38,144 bases of DNA from Terrimicrobiaceae bacterium (GTDB lineage Bacteria; Verrucomicrobiota; Verrucomicrobiia; Chthoniobacterales; Terrimicrobiaceae). The stretch covers positions 1 to 38,144 of the forward strand of contig JBIIPZ010000031.1 in assembly GCA_044342325.1 (NCBI GenBank), written 5' to 3'. The position numbers and the translations under genes are program-made. The notes below the pieces were generated by a model. It did no database searches. It was not told the origin of the DNA and saw nothing but the letters and a program-made list of their open reading frames with translations. Positions 1-14,356 of the stretch are shown here, piece by piece; the stretch's first letter is position 1; every line of letters starts with the position of its first letter.

Positions 1-250
1 AGAAATTCTCGGGCGTGTGGATGTGATGGAATACTTTCTGGATCGGCTAGACACCTTGAACCCGCGACTGAAGGCCACCGAGATGGTCACGGAGTTCACC
101 GACCGCATCAAAAAAATCCGCCTCGTCGCGATCGAGACCCAAGGCGCGATACCAACGCCGGAGCAGGTCGCCAAAATGCGGAAGCTCGCCGACGAAGCCG
201 AACAGATCGCCACCGCGAAGGTGGACGGCGATGGCAAGCTGCTGCGCTGA
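1..250 (+). CDS. 3' end of a hypothetical protein running off the window start; first copy of a tandem duplication
   Basis: Open frame from the window edge to TGA at 248-250; the protein matches the C-terminal part of 483..842 except for one I/T change. Confidence 0.7.
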   Translation, partial: EILGRVDVMEYFLDRLDTLNPRLKATEMVTEFTDRIKKIRLVAIETQGAIPTPEQVAKMRKLADEAEQIATAKVDGDGKLLR

Positions 251-455
251 GGGTTTGCTCACGCGAAACCCGCTGAGGCAATCGATGCGAAGCAGGTGTC
301 GCAGGATTTGCACCATGGCAAACTAAACGCGCTTTTCGCTCTGGATTCTTAAAAAGTGATAATGCGAGGGCGGTTTATCATGCGAGGAGTCGTGTGGAAC
401 ACAAGGCGGCGACTTTTTTCCAGCGACGCTTTTGCAAGCATTCTCAATGCTCTTA

Positions 456-481
456 AATGTCAATAATTAATTCCTGACCCC
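456..481 (+). repeat. 26-bp junction motif aatgtcaataattaattcctgacccc, copy 1
   Basis: Identical copy at 1135-1160; 23/26 match on the minus strand at 5068-5093. Confidence 0.85.
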
Positions 482-482
482 T

Positions 483-842
483 ATGACCTACCACGATGAG
501 GAAATGGCCCACATGGTCAGCCTCGGTGGATGGCTGCGCGGCTTCCAACTAGGAGCTGTCAGCACCGATGACCGCTACTCCCCGGCAAAGGCAGAAATTC
601 TCGGGCGTGTGGATGTGATGGAATACTTTCTGGATCGGCTAGACACCTTGAACCCGCGACTGAAGGCCACCGAGATGGTCACGGAGTTCACAGACCGCAT
701 CAAAAAAATCCGCCTCGTCGCGATCGAGACCCAAGGCGCGACGCCCACGCCAGAACAGGTCGCCAAAATGCGGAAGCTCGCCGACGAAGCCGAACAGATC
801 GCCACCGCGAAAGTAGACGGCGACGGTAAGCTGCTGCGCTGA
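483..842 (+). CDS. Hypothetical protein (119 aa, SLGGWLRG motif), probably the duplicated C-terminal fragment of a longer gene
   Basis: ORF starts 1 nt after the TGACCCC motif with no RBS; differences from copy 1 are almost all synonymous. Confidence 0.6.
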   Translation: MTYHDEEMAHMVSLGGWLRGFQLGAVSTDDRYSPAKAEILGRVDVMEYFLDRLDTLNPRLKATEMVTEFTDRIKKIRLVAIETQGATPTPEQVAKMRKLADEAEQIATAKVDGDGKLLR

Positions 843-961
843 GGGTTTGCTCACGCGAAACCCGCTGAGGCAATCGATGCGAAGCAGGTGTTGTAGGATT
901 TGCACCGTGGCAAACAAAAAGCGCTTTTCGGTCTGGATTCTTAAAAAGTGATAATGCGAGG

Positions 962-1097
962 GCGGTTTATCATGTGAGGAGTCGCGTGAAGCACAAGGCG
1001 GCAACTTTTTTCCAGCGACGCTTTTGCAAGACGCTGTGAGAGGCTGCAGAAGGAAAGCGCGGGTGGAAAATGGAGGATAATATGTGATTATTTGGGA
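962..1097 (+). pseudogene. Degenerate N-terminal remnant of a REP-associated tyrosine transposase (RAYT, Y1 HUH family)
   Basis: Translates AVYHVRSRVKHKAATFFQRRFCKTL*EAAEGKRGWK, resembling the RAYT N-terminus (GAVYHVxxRG...FLxTLxEAxxxxGW); DNA matches 24577-24645 on the minus strand. Confidence 0.6.
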
Positions 1098-1134
1098 CTG
1101 ACTCTTTTGTTTGCAAGCGTTCTCAAGGCTCTTA

Positions 1135-1160
1135 AATGTCAATAATTAATTCCTGACCCC
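1135..1160 (+). repeat. 26-bp junction motif, copy 2
   Basis: Identical to 456-481; immediately precedes the truncated DUF4338 gene. Confidence 0.85.
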
Positions 1161-1165
1161 TATGA

Positions 1166-1468
1166 CGTTTCCTGATTCCGCGCTGGGTGCGGGTCCCGCA
1201 CCTCGCGAGCCATGTGCTCGGACTCATTGCCCGTCGCATCCGCTCCGACTGGCAGGAAAAATACGGACACCCCGTGCATGCGCTCGAAACCTTCGTGGAG
1301 CGTTCGCGCTTCCAAGGAACATGCTACCGAGCGGCCAACTGGCAGCGGCTCGGCGAAACCTGCGGGCGCACCCGCAACGACCGCGACAACACGATCCGCG
1401 TCGAGATCAAGGATGTGTATCTGCATCCGCTCACCCCCCGCTTCCGCGAGGAACTTTGCTCGGCATGA
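1166..1468 (+). pseudogene. 5'-truncated DUF4338 (DruA-like) gene, passenger of the IS66 element
   Basis: RFLIPRWVRVPHLASHVL...DWQEKYGHPVHALETFVE..RFQGTCYRAANWQRLGETCGRTRND is the typical DUF4338 C-terminal half; ATGA overlap with the transposase start. Confidence 0.8.
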
Positions 1469-2946
1469 CACGCGAGGAAGCCCAAGCCATTTACCGCGCC
1501 GGCGAGGAAACCGTCGTGCGCGTTCTTGTGGAACTCTCCGCCCGGGTCGATCAACTCACAGCCGACTTCGCCCTCCTCAAAGCGGAAAACATCGCCCTGC
1601 GCGAGCGCGTGCGCACCCTCGAAGGACAACTCGCCAAAGACTCGCACAACAGCAACAAGCCCCCCTCCTCCGACGGCCTTTCCAAGCCCGCCCCCAAAAG
1701 CCTGCGCCCGCCCAGCCAGCGACCCACGGGAGGTCAGCCCGGGCATCCCGGCCACACGCTGCGCATGGTTGAAAAACCCGACCGCACCGTCACCCACCGC
1801 GTCGAGCGCTGCAAGGCCTGCGGCCAATCCCTCGACACCGTCCATCCCGACCGCATCGAGCGCCGCCAAGTCTACGACCTGCCCGAGCCCAAGCTCGAAA
1901 TCACCGAGCACCAAGGCGAAACCAAGGTCTGCTCGTGCGGTTGCGTCAACCGCGCTGCCTTCCCGCCCGAAGTCCCCGCCCCCGTGCAATACGGCCCCCG
2001 CCTCAAAGGCACCGCTGTGTATTTGAGCCAATACCAACTCCTGCCCTTCGAGCGAACCGCCGAAATCCTGCGCGACCTCCACGGCTGCGAATCCTTCAGC
2101 CAAGGCACGCTGGCCAACTTCCATGCCGACTGTGCCGCCCGCCTCGAGCCCGTCGAAGCCGCCATCCTCCAGCAAGTCGCCGCCTCGCCCATCGCCCACT
2201 TCGACGAAACCGGCGTCCGCGCAGAAGGCTCCCTCCACTGGCTCCACACCGTCTGCACCGAAGTCCTCACCTGGTATTACGCCCACAAAAACCGCGGCGC
2301 CCAAGCCATGGACGACGCCGGAGTCCTGCCCACTTTCCAAGGCCGCGCCATCCACGACTTTTGGAAATCCTACCTCAAATACGACTGCCCCCATGGCCTC
2401 TGCAACGCCCACCTGCTGCGCGAACTCATCTTCCTCCACGAACAGCACAATCAAACCTGGGCCCAAGCCATGATCGACTGCCTGCTCGCTGCCAAAGATG
2501 CCGTCACCAACGCCCGTGCCGCCCATCTCCAAGCCGTTCCCAACACCGAAAAAATCGCCCTCATCACCCGATACAATCGCATCATCACCCAAGGCTACGC
2601 GGAAAACCCAGTCCAGCCTCCCAGCGGCCCCAAACGCCGCGGCCCTCGCAAACAAAGCAAAGCCCTCAACCTCCTCGACCGCTTCCGAGACCACTCCCCG
2701 AGCATCCTCGCGTTCCTCCACGACTTCGCTGTCCCCTTCGACAACAACCAAGCCGAACGCGACCTGCGCATGATGAAGGTCCGCCAGAAAATCTCAGGCA
2801 CCTTCCGCAGCCTTGACGCCCTCGAAAACTTCTGCCGCATCCGCGGCTATGTCTCCACAGCCCGCAAAAACAGCCTCACCGCTCTCAACGCCCTCCGCCG
2901 CCTCTTCCTCGGCGACCCGTTCCTCCCAACCCCCAACTCCTCCTAA
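1465..2946 (+). CDS. tnpC: IS66 family transposase (493 aa)
   Basis: NSNKPPSSDG and GGQPGHPG motifs, CxxC zinc finger, HFDETG, LCNAHLLREL, PFDNNQAERDLRMMKVRQKISGTFRS; ATG 1465 overlaps the DUF4338 stop. Confidence 0.95.
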   Translation: MTREEAQAIYRAGEETVVRVLVELSARVDQLTADFALLKAENIALRERVRTLEGQLAKDSHNSNKPPSSDGLSKPAPKSLRPPSQRPTGGQPGHPGHTLRMVEKPDRTVTHRVERCKACGQSLDTVHPDRIERRQVYDLPEPKLEITEHQGETKVCSCGCVNRAAFPPEVPAPVQYGPRLKGTAVYLSQYQLLPFERTAEILRDLHGCESFSQGTLANFHADCAARLEPVEAAILQQVAASPIAHFDETGVRAEGSLHWLHTVCTEVLTWYYAHKNRGAQAMDDAGVLPTFQGRAIHDFWKSYLKYDCPHGLCNAHLLRELIFLHEQHNQTWAQAMIDCLLAAKDAVTNARAAHLQAVPNTEKIALITRYNRIITQGYAENPVQPPSGPKRRGPRKQSKALNLLDRFRDHSPSILAFLHDFAVPFDNNQAERDLRMMKVRQKISGTFRSLDALENFCRIRGYVSTARKNSLTALNALRRLFLGDPFLPTPNSS

Positions 2947-3151
2947 TCCTCCCGCCCACCTACTCAAAAAAATGCTGACGCCAGCTCGCGCCTACCTGAG
3001 TAGTTACGAATTGCAATGGATTAGAAAAAAATTAGAGGGAAGTTAGGTTAAACCCGATCTGGCGGGTGTAGGCTTTTTCCACCTCTATGCAAGGGACTTC
3101 CTCGAGGACCTCGACTCTGGAGACCATCTGCGGGAACTGGGTGAGAAAATT

Positions 3152-3179
3152 GGATACCTTTCCTGTCGTCCAGGGTCAA
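3152..3179 (+). promoter_or_regulatory. Possible ECF-type promoter (GGATAC-N17-GTCAA)
   Basis: Resembles GGAAC/GTC ECF promoters and lies 26 nt upstream of the ECF gene; weak. Confidence 0.25.
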
Positions 3180-3205
3180 TTCAGGTAAAGGAAGAATTAC
3201 GACAG

Positions 3206-4588
3206 ATGCACGGCGATAACGACACCACTTTGATCAAGGAGGCACTGGACGGCAGCCAGGCGGCCTTTGGCTCACTGGTCGAACGTCATCTCCCCATGGT
3301 CGCCGCCCGGGTGGCACCCCGGATCGCGGGTTATCACGACCGTCAGGAAGTGGTGCAGGAAGTTTTCCTGCGCGCCCATGCGCAACTGACGCAGCTGCGC
3401 GAACCCGAACGGTTCCCCGCCTGGCTTGGCCGCATCGCGGACAACGTCAGCCGCCGCTGGCAGCGTCGTGCAATCGTCCAGGGGGACCTCTTCACAGGCC
3501 CTTCTGATGACCAGGCAACCGAAGCCGCTTCGCACAAGCCCGATCTCGCGATTCGCGCGCGACTGGCGACGGCTATGGCCCGGCTTTCCGCCCGGCACCG
3601 GGAGGCTCTGTATAACCACTATGTCGACCGTTTCAGCTACCAACAGATGGCACTCACGCTTGCGTGCGGACCAGATGTGGTGCGCAGCCGACTTCAGAAA
3701 GCACGTAACCAACTCAAAAAGGAGATCCAAAAAATGACAAAGAACAACGAAACCCATAACATCATAACACTCGACCGTGTGACCGCAAGAGCCCTTCAGG
3801 CTGCCTGTGGATTCCGATTCCGCGCTGATCGCGACAACATCAAAAAACGGGTGGTGTCCGGCATCCTGCTGGAGAAATCGGGGACCATAGCCTCCACGGA
3901 CGGAAGGCGGTTGCTCATTCGGCACTGTCCTGCATTGGCCGTGCTGGCCGCCGACGTCGTCCTCGACAACTGCGATGCCGAGGACTTCGTGGATGTGGAC
4001 GGCGCGGAACTGGCGATTGGTGTGACCGAGGCGGTTTTGCGGCGCACGGGGGGGACGGACGTTGTGTTCCCTCTCATAGCCGAGGCCTATCCCGACTACC
4101 GGATGGTTGTCCCCGAAGAACGGGTTTGGCAGTTCCGTGTCCGAGCCTGCCAGGCGCGGAATCTCTTCAACGAGATCGAGCCCTGCCTCGCGCCCCGCCA
4201 TCCCCAGCATGACGGCCTGCGCTACGAGCCGGTTGTTGAACTTGTGCTCGACGTGGTCGGCGGCAAGCTATCTCTGGCGACCCGGAAGAGTCTGGGCTAT
4301 CATATCGATACTCCCAGCGCGGAATCGGGACTCGCCGATCTACCGGACTGGGAACATAGCGCCTTCATTCAGGGTGCCATCGACAGGAACGAGGCGGCAC
4401 CGGACGAACTCGTCATGCACATCAACTTCGAGTATCTCCGGGATGCAGTCGCTGCGCTGGATCTGGCGGATTCCGACACACTGGATTTCGACTTTTTAGA
4501 CAAGAAACGCAATGTGGTGATCCGACCGACTCGCCGAGCGCGCGACATGGCGGTATTGGCACCCTTCCACTCGAAGGCGGGCTCGTGA
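3206..4588 (+). CDS. ECF sigma-70 factor fused to a C-terminal DNA polymerase III beta-clamp (DnaN domains II-III)-like region
   Basis: N-term sigma2 (AFGSLVERH, QEVVQEVFLRA, LREPERFPAWLGRIA) and sigma4 (LSARHRE...SYQQMA...VRSRLQKARNQLK); C-term ASTDGRRL, LIAEAYPDYRMVVP, INFEYLRDAV and VLAPF match DnaN signatures. Confidence 0.85.
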   Translation: MHGDNDTTLIKEALDGSQAAFGSLVERHLPMVAARVAPRIAGYHDRQEVVQEVFLRAHAQLTQLREPERFPAWLGRIADNVSRRWQRRAIVQGDLFTGPSDDQATEAASHKPDLAIRARLATAMARLSARHREALYNHYVDRFSYQQMALTLACGPDVVRSRLQKARNQLKKEIQKMTKNNETHNIITLDRVTARALQAACGFRFRADRDNIKKRVVSGILLEKSGTIASTDGRRLLIRHCPALAVLAADVVLDNCDAEDFVDVDGAELAIGVTEAVLRRTGGTDVVFPLIAEAYPDYRMVVPEERVWQFRVRACQARNLFNEIEPCLAPRHPQHDGLRYEPVVELVLDVVGGKLSLATRKSLGYHIDTPSAESGLADLPDWEHSAFIQGAIDRNEAAPDELVMHINFEYLRDAVAALDLADSDTLDFDFLDKKRNVVIRPTRRARDMAVLAPFHSKAGS

Positions 4589-4653
4589 AATCGTCCAATT
4601 TCTCAAGCGCAGAAACCATCCCAAAAGGCTCTTAACTTAGCGCCATTCAACCC

Positions 4654-4679
4654 TGACCCCTAGTTTCCTTGACCCCTAG
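4654..4679 (+). repeat. Tandem tgacccctagtttcc repeats; the second copy is interrupted by the MITE
   Basis: tgacccctagtttcc at 4654-4668, then tgacccctag at 4670-4679 continuing as tttcc at 4812. Confidence 0.75.
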
Positions 4680-4811
4680 CAGCCTGTCGGACTTAGGCTT
4701 TTTAGATCCAAAAATGACATTTTTGCCCGCCACCTGATGTCTCCCAGAAAATAAAAACGCGATATAGGCGATTTTAGGAGGTCGAGTTTTCTAAGTCCGA
4801 CAGGCTGCTAG
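4676..4811. mobile_element. MITE: 128-bp non-autonomous element with 17-bp terminal inverted repeats and a CTAG target duplication
   Basis: Perfect 21-nt IR ctagcagcctgtcggacttag (4676-4696) / ctaagtccgacaggctgctag (4791-4811); no internal ORF; removing it restores the tandem repeat. Confidence 0.85.
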
Positions 4812-4850
4812 TTTCCGCTTTGAACCTTTAATTTGGTCTCCCCTCGGAAA

Positions 4851-5066
4851 TCAAGACGGTTGCCCTTCAGGGACGGCTTTGCGGATGCTGACCGCCGAGG
4901 GCATGCCAACGCGGCCGGCGTCGTCCGGCCGGACCAGAAGCGTCAGGACGCGGTCGCTGCCTGAGGGGGGCAGGGCGATCTGCAGCGGGGCGGGGGAGGG
5001 ATCGGATTTTTCCGTGATTTTGATTCCGTCCAGCCAGATCTCGGCGCGGCCATGCAGGGAAGTCAA
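4851..5066 (-). pseudogene. Orphan 3' gene fragment, possibly the C-terminal beta-sandwich of a glycoside hydrolase
   Basis: GRAEIWLDG..ITEK...LTLLV; GC-rich coding-like sequence that begins right at the 5068-5093 motif. Confidence 0.45.
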
Positions 5067-5067
5067 A

Positions 5068-5093
5068 GGGGTCGGGCATTAATTATTGATATT
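5068..5093 (-). repeat. 26-bp junction motif, copy 3, inverted
   Basis: Reverse complement aatatcaataattaatgcccgacccc is 23/26 identical to 456-481. Confidence 0.8.
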
Positions 5094-5300
5094 TGTTCGT
5101 CTGGAGGCGCGAGAACCAAACTTGCGGATGGTATGGGAGCGCCAACGTCCTCGTTGGCTTCGCTGGAGTGGCGGGGGCCGAGAAGGACCTCCGTGTTCTG
5201 CTCTCCATCGGCCGAGCATAGCTCACCGAACCGTGAAAGGTGCTGCTTGCAGGATTGCTGTGGAAAAAGACAACGGTATCCCAAGCTCGCAAAAATTCTG

Positions 5301-5328
5301 TTGACTTGGACTACACTCGTGGTATCTC
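5301..5328 (+). promoter_or_regulatory. Sigma70-type promoter with an imperfect BlaI/CopY-type operator; probably a leaderless transcript
   Basis: TTGACT at 5301 and extended -10 TGgTATCTC; the spacer holds the imperfect palindrome ACTACActcGTGGT; ATG is 6 nt downstream. Confidence 0.5.
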
Positions 5329-5334
5329 TTGGAC

Positions 5335-5736
5335 ATGAGTAAGAAGTTTTCGCCTTCTAAAATCTCCGCATCCGAGTGGGAGGTCATGGATATCGTCTGG
5401 GACAAGCACCCGATCACGGCTCCGGAAGTCTTCGCGCTTCTTGGCAAGGATCAGAAGTGGTCGCAAAAAACCGTCAACACATTCCTTGCCCGCCTTGCCG
5501 GGAAAGAGGCGCTATCGGTCGAGAAGCGTTACAACATGAATTTCTATTCGCCCCTCGTTTCCCGCGAGGAATCGGTCGCCCTGGAGAGCCGCAGTTTTCT
5601 TTCCAGGTTTTTCCAAGGTGGCACCGGCGCGTTGCTGGCACATTTCTGCGACCAGGGGAGCTTGAGCGATGCCGAGCTGGCGGAACTGGAGCGCCTGATC
5701 GCGAGCAAGCGTTCGGAACGAAAGAAAAAGAAATGA
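5335..5736 (+). CDS. BlaI/MecI/CopY family transcriptional repressor
   Basis: ISASEWEVMDIVW, WSQKTVNTFLARLAGK, YSPLVSREE, FLSRFFQG. Confidence 0.93.
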   Translation: MSKKFSPSKISASEWEVMDIVWDKHPITAPEVFALLGKDQKWSQKTVNTFLARLAGKEALSVEKRYNMNFYSPLVSREESVALESRSFLSRFFQGGTGALLAHFCDQGSLSDAELAELERLIASKRSERKKKK

Positions 5737-7871
5737 ACTTCCAAGAACTCATCGATCAACTGCTCGCCAACTCCTGGCGGGCCGCGATTCTCATTGCAGC
5801 ACTTTTCGCGTTTCGCGGAGTTCTGCGGCGGTTCCTGGATGCACGGGTGATTTATTTGTTTTGGGTGCTCGTGGCGCTCAGGCTGCTGCTGCCATTTGAT
5901 GTGCCTGTTTCTGTGAGCGCCGCGCGATATCTTCCTCCCGCACCGTGGACCTCCGCGATGGACTTTGATACAGCGCCATCCGTTTCAGCATCTGCGCCGG
6001 TTGTGCCCAACAGCGTTGCTCCTCCCGCAGCCGCTTCGCTCCGTGAGATTCTATTGAATGAAAAAACGCTGGCGATCGTCTGGGCGGCCGGCGTGGCGAC
6101 TGTGCTGCTGGCTTATTTTTGGGCGAGCCTCTCGTTCCGGCGCCAGCTCTCGCGCAGCGGCCGGCGGGCGGGAAAACGGACGGAACAGGCCGTTTCCGAC
6201 TGCTCGCGAACCATGGGGCTGAAACCCATTCCGGTTTTGGAAATGGACGCCCTCTCCGGTCCGGCATTGTTTGGTGTTTGGAGGCCGCGCCTGCTTTTTC
6301 CGTTGGGACTTGCCGACCAGCTTTCCGACGAGGAACTGCGACTCGTGGTTTTGCACGAACTCGGGCATCTCAAACGCCGCGATCTTCTCTTGCAAGGGCT
6401 GCTCGTTCTTTCACAGGCGGTCCATTGGTTTAATCCGCTGGTCTGGCTGGCGGGACGGCTGGCGCGCGAGGATCGCGAGCTGGCCTGCGATGAATTTGTC
6501 ATGGCGCACACCTCCCATTCCGGGAGTCACGCCTACGCAAAAACGCTGCTGCGGGTGCTGGGTCTGTCTCGGCCGGGTCGATCCATGCTCCCCGCAGTCG
6601 GCATCCTGGAAACAAAAAACCAAATCAAACAACGCATCCTTATGATTACAAAATATCAATCGACTAACGCCCGGCGACTCATGCTGGGAACCGCATCCAT
6701 CCTCGCTGTCAGCGCAGGACTGCTCATGGTTAATGCCGCCGAGAGCGGGTCCAATGCTTCAGCGGCGGCCGACGCATCCTCGGGTGCTCCCGAAGGCTGG
6801 TGGAAAAACGGAAGCGCTCCCGCAGCCTATGACGTGGGAATTGACTCCACACAACCCTACAAAAAACCAGTCAGTGTTTATGTGAAATCCTTGGATCCCA
6901 AAGCTTCCGAAGGCAAGTTTGGAGGCATGATGCAGATGTGCAATGCCGAGTCATTCCGGGGAAAGCGACTTAAATTCACAGGATATGTTAAAACCCGTGA
7001 TGTTGTGGGAACCGCGAATCTTTGGTTTCGCGTCGATGGAGAAAATGAGCAACTTCTTGCATTCGACAACATGCAGGATCGCCCAATCAAAGGGACCACG
7101 GATTGGAAGGAATACTCCGTGGTGCTCAACGTTCCTGAGACAGCCACCGCGCTTGCCTACGGCATTTTTATTTCGGGAGCGGGCATGGCATGGCTGAACG
7201 ATGTCCAGATGATTGAAGTGGGTTCTGATGTGAAGAGCACGAATATCGCAGATTTAAGCACTTCTCCGCAGAACAAGTTGCCGGACGCTCCGCAGAACCT
7301 CGATTTCTCGGTCACCGAGAGCGGTTTCAATGCTTCAGCGCCAGCGTCCGCATCCTCGAGCGCTCCCAAAGGCTGGTGGAAAAACGGAAGCAACTCCGAA
7401 GCCTATGATGTGGGAATTGACTCCACACAACCCTACAAAAAACCAGTCACTGTTTATGTGAAATCCTTGGATCCCAAAGCTTCCGAAGGCAAGTTTGGAG
7501 GCATGATGCAGATGTGCCGTGCTGAGTCGTTTCGGGGAAAGCGTCTGAAATTCACGGGGTATGTTAAAACCCGTGATGTTGCGGGGACCGCGAATCTTTG
7601 GTTTCGCGTCGATGGAGAAAATGGGCAACTTCTTGCATTCGACAACATGAGCGATCGCCCAATCAAAGGGACCACGGATTGGAAGGAATACTCCGTGGTG
7701 CTGGACGTTCCTGAGACAGCCACCGCGCTTGCCTACGGCATTTTTGTTTCGGGAGCGGGCACGGCATGGCTGAACGATGTCCAGTTGATTGAAGTGGGTT
7801 CCGGAGTGAAGAGCACTGCAACCAAGTTGCCAGACGCTCCGCAGAACCTCGATTTCTCGAATGGCAAATGA
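5733..7871 (+). CDS. BlaR1-like M56 metallopeptidase with two tandem C-terminal putative sensor domains (712 aa)
   Basis: TM segments, PALFGVWRPRLLFP, HELGH zinc motif, HWFNPLVW, RELACDE; ATGA coupling to the BlaI gene. Confidence 0.92.
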   Translation: MNFQELIDQLLANSWRAAILIAALFAFRGVLRRFLDARVIYLFWVLVALRLLLPFDVPVSVSAARYLPPAPWTSAMDFDTAPSVSASAPVVPNSVAPPAAASLREILLNEKTLAIVWAAGVATVLLAYFWASLSFRRQLSRSGRRAGKRTEQAVSDCSRTMGLKPIPVLEMDALSGPALFGVWRPRLLFPLGLADQLSDEELRLVVLHELGHLKRRDLLLQGLLVLSQAVHWFNPLVWLAGRLAREDRELACDEFVMAHTSHSGSHAYAKTLLRVLGLSRPGRSMLPAVGILETKNQIKQRILMITKYQSTNARRLMLGTASILAVSAGLLMVNAAESGSNASAAADASSGAPEGWWKNGSAPAAYDVGIDSTQPYKKPVSVYVKSLDPKASEGKFGGMMQMCNAESFRGKRLKFTGYVKTRDVVGTANLWFRVDGENEQLLAFDNMQDRPIKGTTDWKEYSVVLNVPETATALAYGIFISGAGMAWLNDVQMIEVGSDVKSTNIADLSTSPQNKLPDAPQNLDFSVTESGFNASAPASASSSAPKGWWKNGSNSEAYDVGIDSTQPYKKPVTVYVKSLDPKASEGKFGGMMQMCRAESFRGKRLKFTGYVKTRDVAGTANLWFRVDGENGQLLAFDNMSDRPIKGTTDWKEYSVVLDVPETATALAYGIFVSGAGTAWLNDVQLIEVGSGVKSTATKLPDAPQNLDFSNGK
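6741..7859 (+). repeat. Intragenic domain duplication with a 576-nt period
   Basis: 6741-7310 and 7317-7859 are nearly identical at DNA level; copy 2 lacks about 30 nt near its end. Confidence 0.95.
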
Positions 7872-7928
7872 TCTGATGCCGACCCCGGCTCGGTGACCAC
7901 ACGGGTGCACGGGATCGAAAAAATTCCT

Positions 7929-7981
7929 GGCATGTCAAGCCTTGCAGCGCAAGGCTTGACATGCCTTTTAGTGAAAGGCAT
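7929..7981 (+). promoter_or_regulatory. Perfect 17-bp inverted repeat overlapping TTGACA, plus a probable PadR operator ATGCCTTT-N5-AAAGGCAT
   Basis: ggcatgtcaagccttgc-agc-gcaaggcttgacatgcc at 7929-7965; second palindrome at 7961-7981 just upstream of the padR-family gene. Confidence 0.6.
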
Positions 7982-7992
7982 TGTCGGGTCGC

Positions 7993-8328
7993 ATGAAGAC
8001 AAAAGAGCATCTACTCGATGGCGTGCCCGAACTGCTGGTCCTCCGGCTCCTCGCGCACGAGGAAATGTATGGTTATCAACTTGTGTCCGAGATTCAGCGC
8101 CGATCAAAGGGCGCGTTCGAGTTCGGCGAAGGCTGCATCTACCCGGTGCTGCACCGCTTGGTGGCGCAGCGCATGTTGTTGGAGCGCCAGCAAGAGGTCA
8201 GCGGTCGCACGCGGCGCTACTACCGGCTGAGCGCGACGGGCGGGAAGCGTCTCGCGTTTTTGGAGAACACCTGGCAGCAAGTCTCGGCCACCATTGATGC
8301 CTGTGGACTGGAGGTGCGCCATGCGTGA
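7993..8328 (+). CDS. PadR family transcriptional regulator
   Basis: ELLVLRLL..EEMYGYQLV..I, GEGCIYPVLHRL, GRTRRYYRLSATG. Confidence 0.93.
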   Translation: MKTKEHLLDGVPELLVLRLLAHEEMYGYQLVSEIQRRSKGAFEFGEGCIYPVLHRLVAQRMLLERQQEVSGRTRRYYRLSATGGKRLAFLENTWQQVSATIDACGLEVRHA

Positions 8329-9094
8329 GGAATCCTTTGTTTTCAAAATGCGGGCCGCTTTGCATCGGCAAGGCGTGTGGGGCTCGCGGTCGGCAAGACT
8401 TTTGCAGGAGTGGACAGACCATGTGAGGGAGGATGTCACCCACCGCGTGGAGGAGGGGGCTGATCCAGTGTCCGCCGAGGCCGCAGCCTGGCGGGCGCTT
8501 GGAAGTCCAGACGAACTCGCTGCCCATGCCGCGCGCGAACTCGCAGCGGGAACATGGATTGGGCGCCACCCATGGCTGGCCGGACTGGTGATGCCGGTGC
8601 TCGTTTTCGGGCTGACTCTCGCGACAGTGCTTTTTGGCGGCGCGTGGTTGGGTGGCCTGCTTTCAGGCTCCCAAGCACAGCCGGCCAATCTCGCGCTCCT
8701 GGAGTGGTGGGCGCGAACCTTTAACTGGCTGCCGTGGCTGCTTGCCATGGCATGGCTTGCGTGGGTTGCCGCGCGCATGCCCGGAGGCTGGAAGCTCTTC
8801 TGGATCACTGCAGTCGCTCTCACTCTTTGCTCCACGGCGTTCCAGATGAACATCAAGCCTCCACTCAACGGACCGGGAAGTGGTGAACTTCATGTGCTGC
8901 TGTCCGGGCCCGGCGGATTACTGCTTGGTGGAATAGCCAGATTGTTTGCGGGAGAGGTCATGGGGCCTTGGTCTGGCATTTTCTCAGGAGTGACGCAGTG
9001 GGTTCAGTCGCTGTTGCTTGTGGCCGGTTCGATGTTGGTGAAAATGCTGGCAGGTGCCCGACCCAAGGTTAGAAGCCGAATGCAAGTGTCATGA
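8321..9094 (+). CDS. Membrane protein with an N-terminal HAAS/permease-prefix-like helical domain; likely PadR partner
   Basis: EWTDHVRED...GADPVSAEAAAWRALGSPDELA followed by several hydrophobic segments; overlaps the padR-family stop. Confidence 0.75.
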   Translation: MREESFVFKMRAALHRQGVWGSRSARLLQEWTDHVREDVTHRVEEGADPVSAEAAAWRALGSPDELAAHAARELAAGTWIGRHPWLAGLVMPVLVFGLTLATVLFGGAWLGGLLSGSQAQPANLALLEWWARTFNWLPWLLAMAWLAWVAARMPGGWKLFWITAVALTLCSTAFQMNIKPPLNGPGSGELHVLLSGPGGLLLGGIARLFAGEVMGPWSGIFSGVTQWVQSLLLVAGSMLVKMLAGARPKVRSRMQVS

Positions 9095-9186
9095 TCACAA
9101 TACCCAACCGACCCCCGGCCCTGTGATCATTTGGGAGCGCGCGGCCGTTCAAAGATCAGCAGCGATCCATGAGCAATGGATTTTTT

Positions 9187-9281
9187 AACCACGAGTAGAA
9201 CGAATTTTCACGAGTGGGGAGCGGCTTCGCCGGAGAATTTTATCTTCGGTCTTATTCGTGTTTATTCGCAAATTCGTGGTT
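9187..9281. repeat. Imperfect palindromic element built from about 10-nt periodic cacgaat/attcgtg units
   Basis: Left arm aaccacgagtagaacgaattttcacgagt; right arm attcgtgtttattcgcaaattcgtggtt. Confidence 0.6.
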
Positions 9282-9496
9282 CGAATGCTTAGCTCTTGGA
9301 CATCCAAGCAGGACGGACTCATTTGGTTTCCCAGCGGGTCAGGATGTCTGAACTTGGGTCAATATGGGGTGAATACACCATATGGGGAAATCTTGGGAAT
9401 GCGTATTTCTTTATCGCTGGGACAATCACCCACTGAGCCTCAGCCAGGCTCATGCGCAAGCAGAGACCATGGCGTGACGACAAAGAGGAGCGCCGG

Positions 9497-12400
9497 CTAT
9501 TCCTCTCCGGAGTCGCTAAAGAGGAAGTTGAAATCCTCGAGCGTGAGGGCGCGGGCGAAGTTTTCCTCGCCGAGGATGTCGTTGGCGAGGGCGCCTTTCT
9601 TTTTTTGGAGGAGGCGGATTTTTTCCTCGATCGTGCCTTTGATGATGAGGCGGTAGGCGAAGACGGTTTGTTTTTGGCCGATGCGGTGGGTGCGGTCGAT
9701 CGCTTGGGCTTCGACGGCGGGGTTCCACCATGGATCGAAGAGCACGACATAGCTGGCGGCGGTGAGGTTGAGGCCGGAGCCGCCGGCTTTGAGGCTGATG
9801 AGAAAAACGGCGGAGCCTTCGTGTTTCTGGAAGGAATCCACGAGCGGGCCGCGGTCGTCGGTGGAGCCGGTGAGTTTGAATGTCGTCCAATTTCTGGCCG
9901 CGATCTCGGACTCGATGATTTCAAGCATTTCCACGAACTGGGAGAAGACGAGCACCTTCTGGCCCTCTTCCATGAGGGGCTCTAGGAGTTCGAGAAGCGC
10001 GGAAAGTTTGGCACTGTCCTCGGCGTTGTCGGTGGATTTCTTTTTCTTGGTATCCTCAAGGCCGAGCAAGCGCGGATGGCAGCAAATCTGGCGCAGGCGC
10101 AGGAGGCTGGTGAGGATATTAAACCTCATTTTATCGAGCTGCTTTGAGGTTTCGATTTTGAGCAACTGGGCGCGGGCGCGCTTGATCTCGGCTTTGTAGA
10201 GGGTGGATTGCACGCCTTCGAATTCCACGACGAGATCCTCCTCCACACGGTCGGGCAAATCCCGGGCGACTTCATTTTTCGTGCGGCGCAGCAGGAACGG
10301 CCGGGTGCGTGCGGCGAGGCGGCGGCGTGCGAAGGGATCGTCTTTTTTGTCGAACTGCTTGGTGAAAGCCGTGCGATTTCCAAGGGCGCCAGGCATCGCA
10401 AAGGCGAAGATCGACCAGAGGTCGAGCAGGCGGTTCTCGATCGGGGTTCCGCTGAGCGCGAGACGATATTTCGAAGGGAGAGAGCAGGCGGCTTTTGCGT
10501 TTTGCGAGGTGGGATTTTTGATGGCCTGCGCCTCGTCGAGGATCACCGCTCCCCAAGAGACCGCGCGAAGGGCGTCTTCGTGGGAGCGCAGTTGCGGGTA
10601 GTGGATCACGAGCAGGTCCACCGACCCGTCGAGGCCCGTTTTTCCAGCCGAGGCGCGATTCCAGACATCGACTTTGAGTTCAGGAAAAAACTTGCCGCAC
10701 TCGTTGGCCCAGTTGTCCTGAACGGACTTCGGACAGATCACGAGCACGGGATCGGTGATTTTGCCTTCTTTGCGCAGCCAGGCGATCCAAGAGAGGGCCT
10801 GGAGGGTTTTCCCAAGGCCCATGTCGTCGGCCAGCACGCCGCCAAAATTGTTTGCCGTGAGGTAGGCGAGAAAGTGGAAGCCCTCGAGTTGATAGGGCCG
10901 GAGGGTGGCGGTGATGGCGTCGGGTGCCGGCGGGGTGACGCGCGTCTGGATTTCCTCCACGCGGCGGCGGACCTGGGCGATACGCTCGGCGCCGAGAAGC
11001 GATGTGGTTTTTTTGGTGAGGCCGGAGAGCTGAAGCGCGTGCAGGCGTTGCTTTTCGTTGCTGAAATCGTTCACCGAGAGGCCGAGGTCGGCGAGTTCCT
11101 TGAGTTGTTCCTCGGTGAGTTGGTATTCGAGTTTCCTCCAGCCTTTGCCTTCAAGGCGCACCCATTTGCCCTTGGCTTTGAGCAGGAGGTCGATCTCCGC
11201 TTGGGTGAGCGTGCTGTCATTCACATGCAGGGCCACGCTGAGATCAAACCAGTCGATCCCGTCTTTCGAATCCTCAATGTCGATCTGAACATGGCCGGCG
11301 ACTTTGCCGTCGCGCAGGCTCGCGAGCTGGGCATCCAGTTCCACGACGCAACCCGCTGGGCGCCGATCGAGCCAGGCGATGAATTGGTCCGGCCACTCCT
11401 TGCCGGACATGCGCTGCTCATGCCAGATTTGGTGTCCGGCATGCATAGCCTGCTTGAGGGGAATCGAGCGGAGCCACTCGGCGGCGGGACCCATGGCGGA
11501 TTTGTCGAACTGGATCAGCGCATCAACTGCCAACTTGGGCTGGAAGTCCCAAGAGTTGCGATCCCACCAGTTCGTTCCGCTCCAGACCAAGGGCTTCTCG
11601 TAGCCTTGGAAATCCGTCTGAGCGTTGAGTTGGAAAAAATCCGCCGTGCCTCCGTGGTAGCGATAAATCCTGCACTGGATATTCACCGTGGCCGCGATGC
11701 GCTGAACTTTTTTCTCCATGTGCGATGGCACGGGAATGCGGAGCGTGGCGAGCGCGCCCATGCCCTCGCGGGACTCCATCGCTTGCGCCGGAATCGCGAG
11801 AGGCCACTGCGGGCTTTCCTCTCCAAATGGCCAAACTGCGATGGGGTAGACTGCGGTGCTCGTCACATATTGGAGCGGCCTGCCGGAAAGAATGGCGACG
11901 GGGGGCGGCGGCATCTTGCCGGCTGCGTCTAGAAGCAGGAGAGAGTAATCATTCGCCGTGCCTTCCGGAGCTCTGAGCTCCCAACGCAGGGGCTGGTCGA
12001 AAAACCTCACCGGCTGACCGTCTTCCCCAACGACATGTCTATTGAAGAAATCCTTGCTGGTGCCGAGTTGAGTGAGGCTTTTGGAGAGGCTGGGACGCAT
12101 TCCCCGGATTTCGAGGTTCGAGATGGTTCCGTAGTCATCCTTTCCCGCTTGGAGAACCAGATTGGACCCGAGGCTGAGCAGGGGCGCATTGCGCGATTGA
12201 TAGGATTTCTCGATGAATTGGTTGACGAATTTCATCGAGGTTTTGCCAAATTCCGAGCTGCCGGATTCGCGCGCCTGAATGACTGCCGAGTCGGGCAGGA
12301 GCATAAGGCGGAATTCCACATCCGGCGGGAGGGCGCTCCCTTCGGAATCGTCCCATTTATCGAAGGTGTGCTTCCATTTCCTGACCTCTTTCGCGCGCTT

Positions 12401-13054
12401 CCACCCTTCTTCCAAACGCGCCCATACGGCGGCGTCAACAGCCTCCGAAAGTGGTCCCGGCAGCTTGATTTGTTGGGATTTGCAGGCGGCAGCAAGATAC
12501 GCGAAATACTCTGCAGCGTTGGCCGGGGGATTCTCGACAGGAAAAATTTCGATATCGCCCATGCGCCAGAAAGCCGGGTCTCCGACGGCGTTTTTGAGGT
12601 CGCTGAGATTGATCCGGGGTAATTTTTTCGTCCACCACACCTCCGCGTCTCTTAAAAAGCGCTGAACCGCCCGGGGTAATTTTGCCGGGAGTTTATTGGC
12701 AAGGGCCGCGTAGAGGGTGTCCGAGCCTATATCCATAATTGGGGCCTCCTCGGCGACAGACATTTCCCGCGCCTTCAATAACGTGGCCGCAAGGTGCTTG
12801 CAGAGTCCGTGCACCGGGCAATTGCAGTTTAGCAGAAGTTGTTTTTTTTGAAAAAAGACCTCAGTCGAATAGATCGATCCACCGATTACTTTGGCCAAAA
12901 TTTTTTCGCCTGCGTCATCCCACGATAAATAGCTCACAGCTCCACGCCGGAAGAGGGCTTGTCCCTTTCGGACTTCCTTGGCGCCAAAGGAGCGCACGGC
13001 GTCATCGATTCTTTTGCGTTGCTCGTTGGTGATGAAAAAATCCGCTGAAGCCAT
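9497..13054 (-). CDS. SNF2-family helicase with an N-terminal SWIM zinc finger
   Basis: CNCPVHGLCKH (SWIM), LRPYQ, LADDMGLGKT, ILDEAQ, LSGTPIEN, VFSQF, QAIDRTHRIGQ; start placed at ATG 13054. Confidence 0.95.
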   Translation of the reverse strand: MASADFFITNEQRKRIDDAVRSFGAKEVRKGQALFRRGAVSYLSWDDAGEKILAKVIGGSIYSTEVFFQKKQLLLNCNCPVHGLCKHLAATLLKAREMSVAEEAPIMDIGSDTLYAALANKLPAKLPRAVQRFLRDAEVWWTKKLPRINLSDLKNAVGDPAFWRMGDIEIFPVENPPANAAEYFAYLAAACKSQQIKLPGPLSEAVDAAVWARLEEGWKRAKEVRKWKHTFDKWDDSEGSALPPDVEFRLMLLPDSAVIQARESGSSEFGKTSMKFVNQFIEKSYQSRNAPLLSLGSNLVLQAGKDDYGTISNLEIRGMRPSLSKSLTQLGTSKDFFNRHVVGEDGQPVRFFDQPLRWELRAPEGTANDYSLLLLDAAGKMPPPPVAILSGRPLQYVTSTAVYPIAVWPFGEESPQWPLAIPAQAMESREGMGALATLRIPVPSHMEKKVQRIAATVNIQCRIYRYHGGTADFFQLNAQTDFQGYEKPLVWSGTNWWDRNSWDFQPKLAVDALIQFDKSAMGPAAEWLRSIPLKQAMHAGHQIWHEQRMSGKEWPDQFIAWLDRRPAGCVVELDAQLASLRDGKVAGHVQIDIEDSKDGIDWFDLSVALHVNDSTLTQAEIDLLLKAKGKWVRLEGKGWRKLEYQLTEEQLKELADLGLSVNDFSNEKQRLHALQLSGLTKKTTSLLGAERIAQVRRRVEEIQTRVTPPAPDAITATLRPYQLEGFHFLAYLTANNFGGVLADDMGLGKTLQALSWIAWLRKEGKITDPVLVICPKSVQDNWANECGKFFPELKVDVWNRASAGKTGLDGSVDLLVIHYPQLRSHEDALRAVSWGAVILDEAQAIKNPTSQNAKAACSLPSKYRLALSGTPIENRLLDLWSIFAFAMPGALGNRTAFTKQFDKKDDPFARRRLAARTRPFLLRRTKNEVARDLPDRVEEDLVVEFEGVQSTLYKAEIKRARAQLLKIETSKQLDKMRFNILTSLLRLRQICCHPRLLGLEDTKKKKSTDNAEDSAKLSALLELLEPLMEEGQKVLVFSQFVEMLEIIESEIAARNWTTFKLTGSTDDRGPLVDSFQKHEGSAVFLISLKAGGSGLNLTAASYVVLFDPWWNPAVEAQAIDRTHRIGQKQTVFAYRLIIKGTIEEKIRLLQKKKGALANDILGEENFARALTLEDFNFLFSDSGEE

Positions 13055-13174
13055 GTGTCGTTGGGCAATGATGCTCTTTATTGCGCTAAAAAAACAAGCC
13101 GGCAGGCGCGAGACTTTTTCGCCTTGCCGCTCGACAGGCATGGCTCATCGGGGTAAACCGAAGCCCTGTTATAT

Positions 13175-14356
13175 ATGGAGATTCTGAATTTTCTCATGAA
13201 GCCGGAGCCATTCTTGGTGTGGACCTCTCTGGCGAAAACGCTCGGCCTGCTTGGCCTGATTCTGGGTTTGGTTTCCTACACGGTCTATGCCGAGCGTAAA
13301 ATCTGCGCTTGGATCCAGGACCGCGTCGGACCGAATCGCACCGGTATTCCGCTTACGAAAATCCGGATTCTCGGCCTTGGCCAGCCGATCGCTGATGCGC
13401 TGAAGCTTCTCTTGAAGGAAAATTTCATCCCCCACGAGGTGAACAAATTTTACTACTACATCGCGCCAAAGCTCGCGATGGTGCCTGCGATTCTCGTCTT
13501 GGCGGTATTGCCCTTTGGAAGTTCGCTTTTCGGGGTTCCGATGGTGATTGCGGATATCAATATCGGCGTCCTTTATGTATTCGCCGTTTCCTCGCTGGGC
13601 GTCTACGGCATCGTGCTCGCGGGCTGGGCCTCGAACTCGAAATACCCCTTCCTCGGCGGCATTCGCTCCACTTCGCAGATGATTTCCTACGAGCTGGCGC
13701 TCGGTCTTTCAGTGATCCCGGTTTTTATGCTCTGCGGCACCTTGAACATGCCCGACATCGTGAACTGGCAGCGTGAGAATGGCTGGATGGTCGCTCCCTT
13801 CTGGGCCAAGGGCCTGACTTGGGAAATGCTGCTCTCGGGCGATTTCAAGGCCGTGCTGGACACATTCGTGAACGGCTTTTCCTTGTCCCGCCTGCTCATC
13901 TGGATCCCGATGTTGATTTCGTTCATCATTTTCCTGATCGCGATGTTTGCGGAGACCAACCGCGCGCCGTTCGATCTTCCCGAGGCCGAGCAGGAACTCG
14001 TCGGCGGCTACCACACCGAGTATTCGGGCATGGGTTTCGCGCTCTTCTTCCTCGGTGAATACGCGGCGATGATCGCGGGTTCGGGCGTTATCGTGACACT
14101 CTTTCTGGGTGGCTGGAGCCTGCCGATGATCCCCGATGGCTCGATGCCGGGTCTGCCGGGTGTGATCTTTGGCCTGATCAACATCGGTGTCTTTTTCGCC
14201 AAAGTGAGTGCGCTTTTGGTGCTGTTCATCTGGGTGCGTTGGACGGTTCCCCGTTTCCGCTATGACCAACTGATGAAGCTCGGTTGGTATTTCTTCTTCG
14301 AACTGGCCTTGGTGAACATTTTCATTACAGCCTTCATCTTGGCCTACATCAAATAA
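13175..14356 (+). CDS. nuoH: NADH-quinone oxidoreductase subunit H
   Basis: ERKICAWIQDRVGPNR, QPIADALKLLLKE, GWASNSKY, AETNRAPFDLPEAEQELVGGYHTEYSG, PRFRYDQLM. Confidence 0.97.
   Translation: MEILNFLMKPEPFLVWTSLAKTLGLLGLILGLVSYTVYAERKICAWIQDRVGPNRTGIPLTKIRILGLGQPIADALKLLLKENFIPHEVNKFYYYIAPKLAMVPAILVLAVLPFGSSLFGVPMVIADINIGVLYVFAVSSLGVYGIVLAGWASNSKYPFLGGIRSTSQMISYELALGLSVIPVFMLCGTLNMPDIVNWQRENGWMVAPFWAKGLTWEMLLSGDFKAVLDTFVNGFSLSRLLIWIPMLISFIIFLIAMFAETNRAPFDLPEAEQELVGGYHTEYSGMGFALFFLGEYAAMIAGSGVIVTLFLGGWSLPMIPDGSMPGLPGVIFGLINIGVFFAKVSALLVLFIWVRWTVPRFRYDQLMKLGWYFFFELALVNIFITAFILAYIK

Follow-up and report, generated by a model that had tools for sequence, protein, structure and literature searches.

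Extracytoplasmic function (ECF) sigma factors consist of a sigma2–sigma4 core, and several groups carry in addition a C-terminal domain of more than 50 amino acids (aa): ECF41, ECF56, ECF294 and ECF295 (SnoaL-like), ECF42 (TPR) and ECF238 (Cys-rich). ECF groups with such extensions are usually without anti-sigma genes, and the extensions are thought to touch the core (PMC7826278). A second precedent for the protein described below comes from T4 late transcription, where the sigma factor gp55 and gp33 dock on the sliding clamp gp45, and from Mu, where MuC docks on the beta clamp of E. coli; in both, a DNA-loaded ring, separate from these proteins, serves as the clamp, and the docking motifs are terminal. 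The consensus of the motif that binds the bacterial clamp is QL(S/D)LF or QLxLxL, and it is variable (PMC9690074). Here, we focus on an open reading frame (ORF) of 460 aa in a stretch of 38,144 nucleotides (nt; hereafter the window) from a Terrimicrobiaceae bacterium (contig JBIIPZ010000031.1), which encodes an ECF sigma factor fused to a module that resembles the clamp protein DnaN. A conserved peptide in the linker between sigma regions 2 and 4, together with the fused clamp copy, suggests a self-locking gene switch.

The fusion is like the ECF groups named above in its core, its C-terminal domain and the lack of an adjoining anti-sigma gene. It is unlike them in that the extension resembles domains II and III of DnaN, and in that the proposed contact is made by a clamp-binding-like motif in a clamp-type cleft. 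A clamp-type extension is not mentioned in the main text of PMC7826278 or in the part of its supplement examined, and searches of the literature gave no paper on an ECF sigma factor with a clamp-like extension. With the beta clamp the module shares its fold, the homology of domains II and III, cleft residues and a predicted peptide pose; unlike DnaN it has no domain I, so that the usual head-to-tail dimer ring could presumably not form as in DnaN, and it scores below the Pfam cut-offs for clamps. Unlike the ligands of DnaN, most motifs of the fusion family are without the usual hydrophobic anchor at position 5/6. The T4 and Mu proteins offer a likeness of another kind, a specificity or activator protein with a clamp-docking peptide (here a candidate one), through which transcription is tied to a sliding-clamp fold. 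The T4 type is defined by a separate ring clamp and a C-terminal motif, whereas in the window the clamp-like module, which lacks a domain, is covalently fused, and the motif lies inside the protein (residues 92–96 of 460). The proposed logic is that of a sigma/anti-sigma pair, in which a partner sequesters determinants of sigma that RNA polymerase needs; unlike in such pairs, there is no anti-sigma domain, and the partner is part of the sigma protein itself, with an internal start that perhaps gives rise to a separate copy as well.

The sigma factor part of the ORF is of the ECF type. The NCBIfam model TIGR02937 (sigma70-ECF) scores the ORF at 65.4 bits (cut-off 42.9), the spacing between sigma2 and sigma4 is about 29 residues, and regions 3 and 1.1 are absent; on these sequence features the ORF belongs to the ECF (group 4) sigma-70 family. 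Within region 4 the stretch VRSRLQKAR is invariant across the fusion family. The extension (residues 177–460) adds 284 aa to the core, above the 50 aa by which ECFs with extensions are set apart. In the window no anti-sigma gene is seen adjoining the fusion gene, and no anti-sigma family is among the Pfam matches of 81 neighbouring ORFs at eight selected loci, where absence of a Pfam match is not proof of absence; to be without an anti-sigma neighbour is the usual state for ECFs under the control of C-terminal extensions (PMC7826278).

The extension has the fold of a sliding clamp and is homologous to one. A clamp-like domain in this protein had been proposed from the DNA letters alone, and comparison of structures and of profiles confirms it. 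An AlphaFold model of the full-length protein was built from 11 sequences (mean predicted local distance difference test score, pLDDT, 82.9; predicted template modelling score, pTM, 0.72), and its best matches in Foldseek are all beta sliding clamps, with E about 1e-12. VIA-align lays model residues 184–456 on E. coli beta residues 123/125–366, that is, on domains II and III, with Z 20–24 and a root-mean-square deviation of 2.3–2.7 Å over about 232 residues. A profile made from 18 C-domain sequences matches DnaN chains of known structure, with E from 5e-20 to 1e-16, and covers beta residues 124–269 and 311–366. In this alignment, the family segments 'vatdGhrLl', 'YvdYekViP' and 'lvMPlrl' correspond to VATDGHRLA, FPDYRRVLP and VVMPMRL of beta (residues 170–178, 241–249 and 360–366, counted from the profile alignment), which presumably line the peptide-binding cleft of the clamp. 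In sequence searches the homology is visible only through the family profile: on their own, residues 177–460 give nothing above threshold in Pfam (PF02768 12 bits, cut-off 27) and have no match above threshold in the PDB by direct sequence search. Sub-threshold matches to PF02768 occur in nine, and to PF02767 in one, of 37 fusion homologues (proteins of at least 380 aa; P0002, which duplicates the query, and P0013, which matches in the sigma part only, are left out). The module is also less than a DnaN protein: in place of three tandem clamp domains only domains II and III align, domain I being absent, and no DNA_pol3_beta match rises above its Pfam cut-off. A canonical dnaN lies at a separate site in the same genome (376-aa frame, PF02768 98 bits), and the module is thus an extra, two-domain paralogue.

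The peptide that might bind such a module lies in the same protein. The sequence-only reading had pointed to a clamp-binding-like motif, QGDLF, at residues 92–96 in the sigma2–sigma4 linker. Codons and Pfam boundaries agree with this placement: CAG GGG GAC CTC TTC encode Q92, G93, D94, L95 and F96 at the very start of the linker, just past sigma region 2. Compared with the clamp-binding consensus, Q1, L4 and F5 match and position 2 is G, so that QGDLF falls short of either form. That reading cautioned that five residues can match by chance. When the protein is shuffled 100,000 times, 6.2% of the shuffles contain Q..LF, and 0.39% contain it inside a 25-residue linker window. The bare five-letter match is therefore weak, and what lifts QGDLF above chance is the conservation of a looser family motif, Q-h-x-h (h, hydrophobic). 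Of the 37 fusions, 34 have Q at position 1, and Q92 is one of the few nearly invariant columns; position 2 is L, I, M or V in 26, and position 4 is L, F, W, Y or M in 35. A larger set of 69 unique fusions (the 37 representatives, three cluster members and 30 locus ORFs of at least 340 aa, minus one identical) has Q in register in 66 and a hydrophobic position 4 in 66, and Q is present in 33 of 36 clusters formed below 50% identity.

Once register shifts of 2–4 residues within the linker window are allowed, Qxx-hydrophobic is found in 69/69 fusions. In two of the three representatives that seem to lack Q, a more canonical motif stands further along (QLRLF at +4, QLHLAL at +2); the third, P0026, has by eye Q-E-T-L two residues downstream, and the cluster member P0123 has QLML downstream. 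A motif that is intact despite a shift of register fits a linear motif and not a fixed helix contact. Forms closer to the clamp-binding consensus are less common: QL[SDNE]L[FL] occurs in 8/69 fusions (QLDLL six times, QLNLL and QLELL), these readings belonging to one Latescibacterota/Gemmatimonadota clade, and the looser Q[LM]x[LM][FL] or QLxLx[LF] occurs in 12/69. The control consisted of all 37 unfused ECFs returned as nearest short relatives (25–42% identity), read over the same linker window; there Qxx-hydrophobic is present in six, Q[LIMV]x[LFWMY] in one and the strict forms in none.

The residues that would receive the peptide are conserved as well. In the 37 fusions T231 is kept in 30, the G of this segment in 33, R235 in 28 and L236 in 29; position 296 is P or V in all 37, Y298 and V301 are each kept in 30, M stands at position 452 in 29 (A in the window protein) and P453 is kept in 32. 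With the cleft-lining residues of E. coli beta as reference, these alignment columns indicate that the module keeps a conserved peptide-binding cleft between domains II and III.

Linker residues 80–115 were co-folded with the clamp module (residues 177–460), each with a 37-row alignment. The interface score ipSAE was 0.77, 0.77 and 0.79, against 0.02 for the best of three controls; the ipSAE mark is reached by 116 of 157 solved complexes and by 2 of 215 mismatched pairs, in a calibration without user-supplied alignments. The runs share at least 57% of their contacts, and the pLDDT of the partner is at least 49. On the linker side the confident interface comprises residues 88–96 and 98–99, and on the module side residues 231, 233–236, 296, 298, 300–301, 341, 343, 364, 405, 407, 434–436, 450 and 452–457. 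The module-side contacts include the segments TDGRRL, YPDYRMV and VLAPFH together with N407, that is, the canonical cleft, and T231, G233, R234, R235, L236, P296, Y298, V301, N407, V450, A452, P453 and F454 are the aligned equivalents of cleft residues in E. coli beta. Core contact columns of the cleft are kept in 28–33 of the 37 fusions and several peripheral ones vary. The pairs with lowest error join L95 to residues 233, 234, 236, 301, 450 and 452. We put the probability that the linker motif docks into the module's own cleft, as this model predicts, at about 0.45, a little short of even odds.

The mechanism that we propose starts from what was observed: the domains that make up the protein, a conserved motif and a conserved pocket, and the fact that the two occur together. 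The ORF would be an autoregulated ECF sigma factor, with its C-terminal extension acting as a pseudo-clamp that has lost domain I of DnaN and retained the peptide cleft. The first residues of the sigma2–sigma4 linker (Q-h-x-h; QGDLF here) would dock into this cleft in cis, or else in trans on separate modules made from a conserved internal start. In the ECF holoenzyme, the path of the sigmaR2/4 linker runs into the active-centre cleft, where it touches template-strand DNA, and out via the RNA exit channel (PMC6372665, Lin et al. 2019). Since the same linker must thread RNA polymerase, its docked and its polymerase-engaged states would be mutually exclusive, and this makes an anti-sigma-like lock the simplest reading: the module would be a built-in lock, and the vacating or filling of its pocket would set the activity of sigma. 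We infer the inhibitory direction, a release signal and use of the internal start. If this is true, a control module has been borrowed from the replication machinery, with the peptide-docking logic of the clamp applied to the sigma segment that threads RNA polymerase, and the state of replication or clamp-targeting compounds would be linked to transcription in a new way. That the fusion serves as a sensor of clamp-pocket occupancy is a further step to which we give little credence. Surplus clamp-binding peptides would then compete the linker out and switch sigma on; the competitors might be polymerases or repair factors off stalled forks, clamp-targeting toxins or pocket-binding antibiotics. 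The free clamp module from the internal start would set the threshold, and the state of the replication machinery would become a transcriptional signal.

Several observations weigh against docking of the linker in the pocket. The success of the co-fold may echo the many solved clamp–peptide complexes, reflecting likeness rather than binding. A second full-length AlphaFold model (37 rows) is compact, with mean pLDDT 90.3 and pTM 0.82; in both full-length models residues 67–95/97 form one helix, Q92–D94 being helical and continuous with sigma2, and pLDDT is below 50 at residues 96–111 (11 rows) and 95–109 (37 rows). With low values from residue 95/96 onwards, L95–F96 are not confidently docked in the full-length prediction, and the earlier idea of a linker that occupies the pocket is thus favoured by the co-fold, which places Q92–F96 in the canonical cleft, and left without backing by the full-length models. 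In the mutual information between linker and C-domain, pocket columns take part in one of the top 25 pairs versus 2.26 expected, at an effective number of sequences (Neff) of about 55; pocket residues are not enriched, and there is no signal in either direction. Conservation of QxxLF among the homologous fusions, the pattern that the sequence-only reading had named for checking, fails: position 5 is F in only 3/37, positions 5–6 are mostly E or D, and strict QL[SD]LF is found in 0/69. The clamp-binding-like motif survives as a conserved family feature in the form Q-h-x-h, and the LF pair is not kept. Even within the family QGDLF is atypical, with G at position 2 in 1/37 where L, I, M or V is usual, and the window protein also departs from the family M at pocket residue 452. 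Lastly, conservation within a single clade cannot separate function from shared descent. On balance the original interpretation is partly supported.

Some of these points can be read in favour of a role on the polymerase side, where Q-h-x-h would cap the last sigma2 helix or, at the opening of the cleft, make contact with beta-prime or template-strand DNA, and the pocket would serve other ligands or be a structural remnant. We regard this as unlikely, although it would suit the helical Q92–D94 continuous with sigma2 and the lack of linker–pocket covariation. The acidic positions 5–6 resemble RNA-mimicking linkers (PMC6372665, Lin et al.), and TDGxRL, PDYxxV and MPxR are the segments in which ordinary DnaN, too, is most conserved, so that their retention could be structural. 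It sits poorly with a motif that moves by 2–4 residues in some members and is still intact, and that hardly occurs in the nearest unfused ECFs, and with a co-fold that passes its controls. The same scarcity in unfused ECFs, together with the retention of Q and of a hydrophobic position 4 (66/69 each) over several phyla, makes a chance resemblance without function scarcely credible, even though Q..LF is not rare among shuffles of the protein and F96 and G93 differ from the family consensus. Docking might also have the opposite effect from the lock: the clamp module would hold sigma2, the linker and sigma4 in a competent state and be required for activity, as is reported for some extensions, those of ECF41 and ECF42 among them. 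The compact predicted fold of the whole protein is compatible with this, and ECF extensions each contact the core in their own way (PMC7826278, citing Wu et al. 2019). Against it, the linker cannot lie in the pocket and follow its path through RNA polymerase at once, and we consider activation by docking distinctly improbable. Also improbable, and slightly more so, is a tether between the motif and the DnaN ring of the host, which would couple transcription to loaded clamps. It has precedents in T4 gp55/gp33 with gp45 and in Mu MuC with beta (PMC9690074, PMC12867686), the genome has a canonical dnaN and the motif is clamp-binding-like; but the motif is internal and abuts sigma2, where those of T4 are C-terminal (PMC9690074), and a tether leaves its strict co-occurrence with a private pocket unexplained.

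Table 1. Features of the sigma–clamp fusion gene and its upstream region, with positions in the window.
Feature	Position	Strand	Basis
Promoter-like motif of ECF type, GGATAC-N15-GGGTC, with its end 29 nt upstream of the ATG; probably the promoter for autoregulation	3152..3177	+	Loci versus background
ORF, 460 aa: ECF sigma factor fused to clamp-like module	3206..4588	+	Domain searches and structure comparison
Sigma region 2, residues 24–88	3275..3469	+	PF04542 (Sigma70_r2), 35.3 bits, cut-off 24
Linker motif Q92-G-D-L-F96, local form of family motif Q-h-x-h	3479..3493	+	Translation, alignments, co-fold
Remainder of sigma2–sigma4 linker, residues 97–117, predicted disordered	3494..3556	+	pLDDT <50
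Sigma region 4, residues 118–170	3557..3715	+	PF08281 (Sigma70_r4_2), 31.9 bits, cut-off 25.7
In-frame AAGGAG-N9-ATG (M177 codon) where sigma4 meets the clamp; candidate internal start of a free module (284 aa)	3719..3736	+	Loci comparison
Clamp-like module, residues 184–457, homologous to DnaN domains II and III	3755..4576	+	Foldseek, VIA-align, profile, sub-threshold PF02768
Pocket segment T231-D-G-R-R-L236, aligned to E. coli beta TDGHRL	3896..3913	+	Profile alignment, co-fold contacts, conservation
Pocket segment P296-D-Y-R-M-V301, aligned to beta PDYRRV	4091..4108	+	Profile alignment, co-fold contacts, conservation
C-terminal pocket strand V450-L-A-P-F-H455, aligned to beta VVMPMR	4553..4570	+	Profile alignment, co-fold contacts, conservation

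The Shine–Dalgarno (SD) sequence and ATG at the junction of sigma4 and clamp (table 1) are probably an internal start that gives a free clamp module. The pattern [A/G]AGGAG-N9-ATG stands at this junction in 29/29 genome loci (L026–L056; the loci are related, and the counts overstate independence) as well as in the window, whereas the background, SD-like 4-mers elsewhere in frame, is 17%. All 29 have GAG as codon −4, GAG making up 65% of Glu codons in the same ORFs, and codon −5 is AAG (22) or GAG (7), a swap between K and E that keeps AGGAG. Residue 177 is M in 31 of the 37 fusions, and the Opitutaceae and Lentisphaerae members deviate at the junction. The pattern of codons points to selection that acts on the nucleotides themselves, in favour of an internal start that would yield the free module.

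Upstream of the gene, the strict form GGATAC-N15-G[CG][AG][AT]C of the promoter-like motif occurs in 21/31 loci versus 2 of 398 background windows of 340 nt, and the loose form G[GA][AC]TAC-N14-16-G[CG][AG][AT]C in 24/31 versus 5/398; fusion genes of several phyla carry it (L025–L056). A conserved upstream motif of ECF type fits ECF autoregulation. Within the window the promoter scan gives one match versus 0.43 expected. A regulon scan of the organism's own genome with GGATACYTYN12GSRWC returns three matches, the fusion gene's own promoter and two inside coding regions, and the control with the reversed pattern returns none; further targets were not found in this genome.

A scan of 1.84 billion representatives with the C-domain lists 57 proteins at E ≤1e-3, of which 39 are at ≤1e-10, and no ordinary DnaN is among the 57 listed. 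The fusion family is therefore small, yet it is conserved in single copy in Latescibacterota chromosomes: each of five has exactly one member, and two of the five have DnaN-level matches at the 1e-6 cut-off. Sigma2 and sigma4 are both present in all 37 fusion homologues. Short proteins that seem to consist of the module alone come mostly from contigs of 1–3 kb, and their 90% clusters contain full-length fusions; standalone clamp-module genes were rejected as mostly truncated calls, and the five complete Latescibacterota chromosomes have none. In two proteins, P0016 (324 aa) and P0054 (348 aa), the module lies behind a zinc-ribbon-like N-terminus (which has QVQL) and before a SEC-C-like Cys motif, and by these architectures the module is not confined to sigma factors.

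A pattern scan of species genomes gave 47 loci. Fusion relatives account for 34 (three of them cut short or broken), including 24 from Latescibacterota, six from Gemmatimonadota or Gemmatimonadaceae, one from Lentisphaerae and one from Opitutaceae, and the other 13 are sigma-only matches in Firmicutes. The Lentisphaerae member (L024) has an in-frame stop in sigma region 2, around 5090–5130, and ATA in place of ATG at the junction, and may be decaying or mis-assembled. One Latescibacterota locus (L055) is probably a broken copy, its frame being open for just 81 aa while tblastn covers query residues 24–297. Gene neighbourhoods of the fusion show no conservation across clades. A gene for pyrimidine 5'-nucleotidase (UMPH-1) lies near the fusion in 16 loci (L028, L031, L033 and 13 others), downstream and on the opposite strand; the link is mostly within one clade and may be synteny only.

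In a sample of 401 genomes from the phylum of the window, the fusion is found only in the window's own genome (E 1e-105), the next best matches (≤3.5e-17) being at dnaN level. Two candidates with long frames from this sample were set aside, one a dnaN beside dnaA and the other a three-domain DnaN paralogue beside an integrase; neither is a fusion. The latter (L023, 3115–4521; G065:C54) is 468 aa long with a C-terminal tail, adjoins an integrase-like gene and has the look of a clamp that travels with a mobile element.

The fusion gene is absent from both same-genus genomes, and the nearest homologue of its product has only 47% identity. An IS66-family transposase (1162–2946) precedes it, and inverted 33-nt copies at 1134–1166 and 5062–5094 (88% complementary) flank transposase and sigma–clamp gene; the repeat also occurs at 431–487. 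Because of the flanking repeats, the absence from congeners and the low identity of the nearest homologue, the sequence evidence points to horizontal acquisition. The 33-nt repeat is part of an element of about 140 nt (5060–5200), many copies of which are present in this genome and in a same-genus genome; with the flanking repeat being a dispersed one, a mobile unit carrying the fusion gene as passenger of the insertion sequence is not supported. The DNA of two same-genus genomes is too diverged for synteny to define an insertion.

Other features of the window lie around this gene. A pair like BlaI/BlaR1 is encoded downstream, with a BlaI-type repressor at 5329–5736 and a BlaR1/M56 peptidase at 5733–7871; the extracellular part of the peptidase has two near-identical repeats of about 170 aa (APEGWWKNGS...). 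Upstream of the transposase, positions 1–300 and 593–892 form a direct repeat of 300 nt with 96% identity. In the gap downstream of the sigma–clamp gene, a perfect 21-nt inverted repeat (4676–4696 and 4791–4811) encloses a loop of 94 nt and might represent a small mobile element or else form a long hairpin. An SNF2-family helicase of 1214 aa is encoded on the reverse strand at 9497–13141, among the few parts of positions 1–13200 with DNA matches in the same genus.

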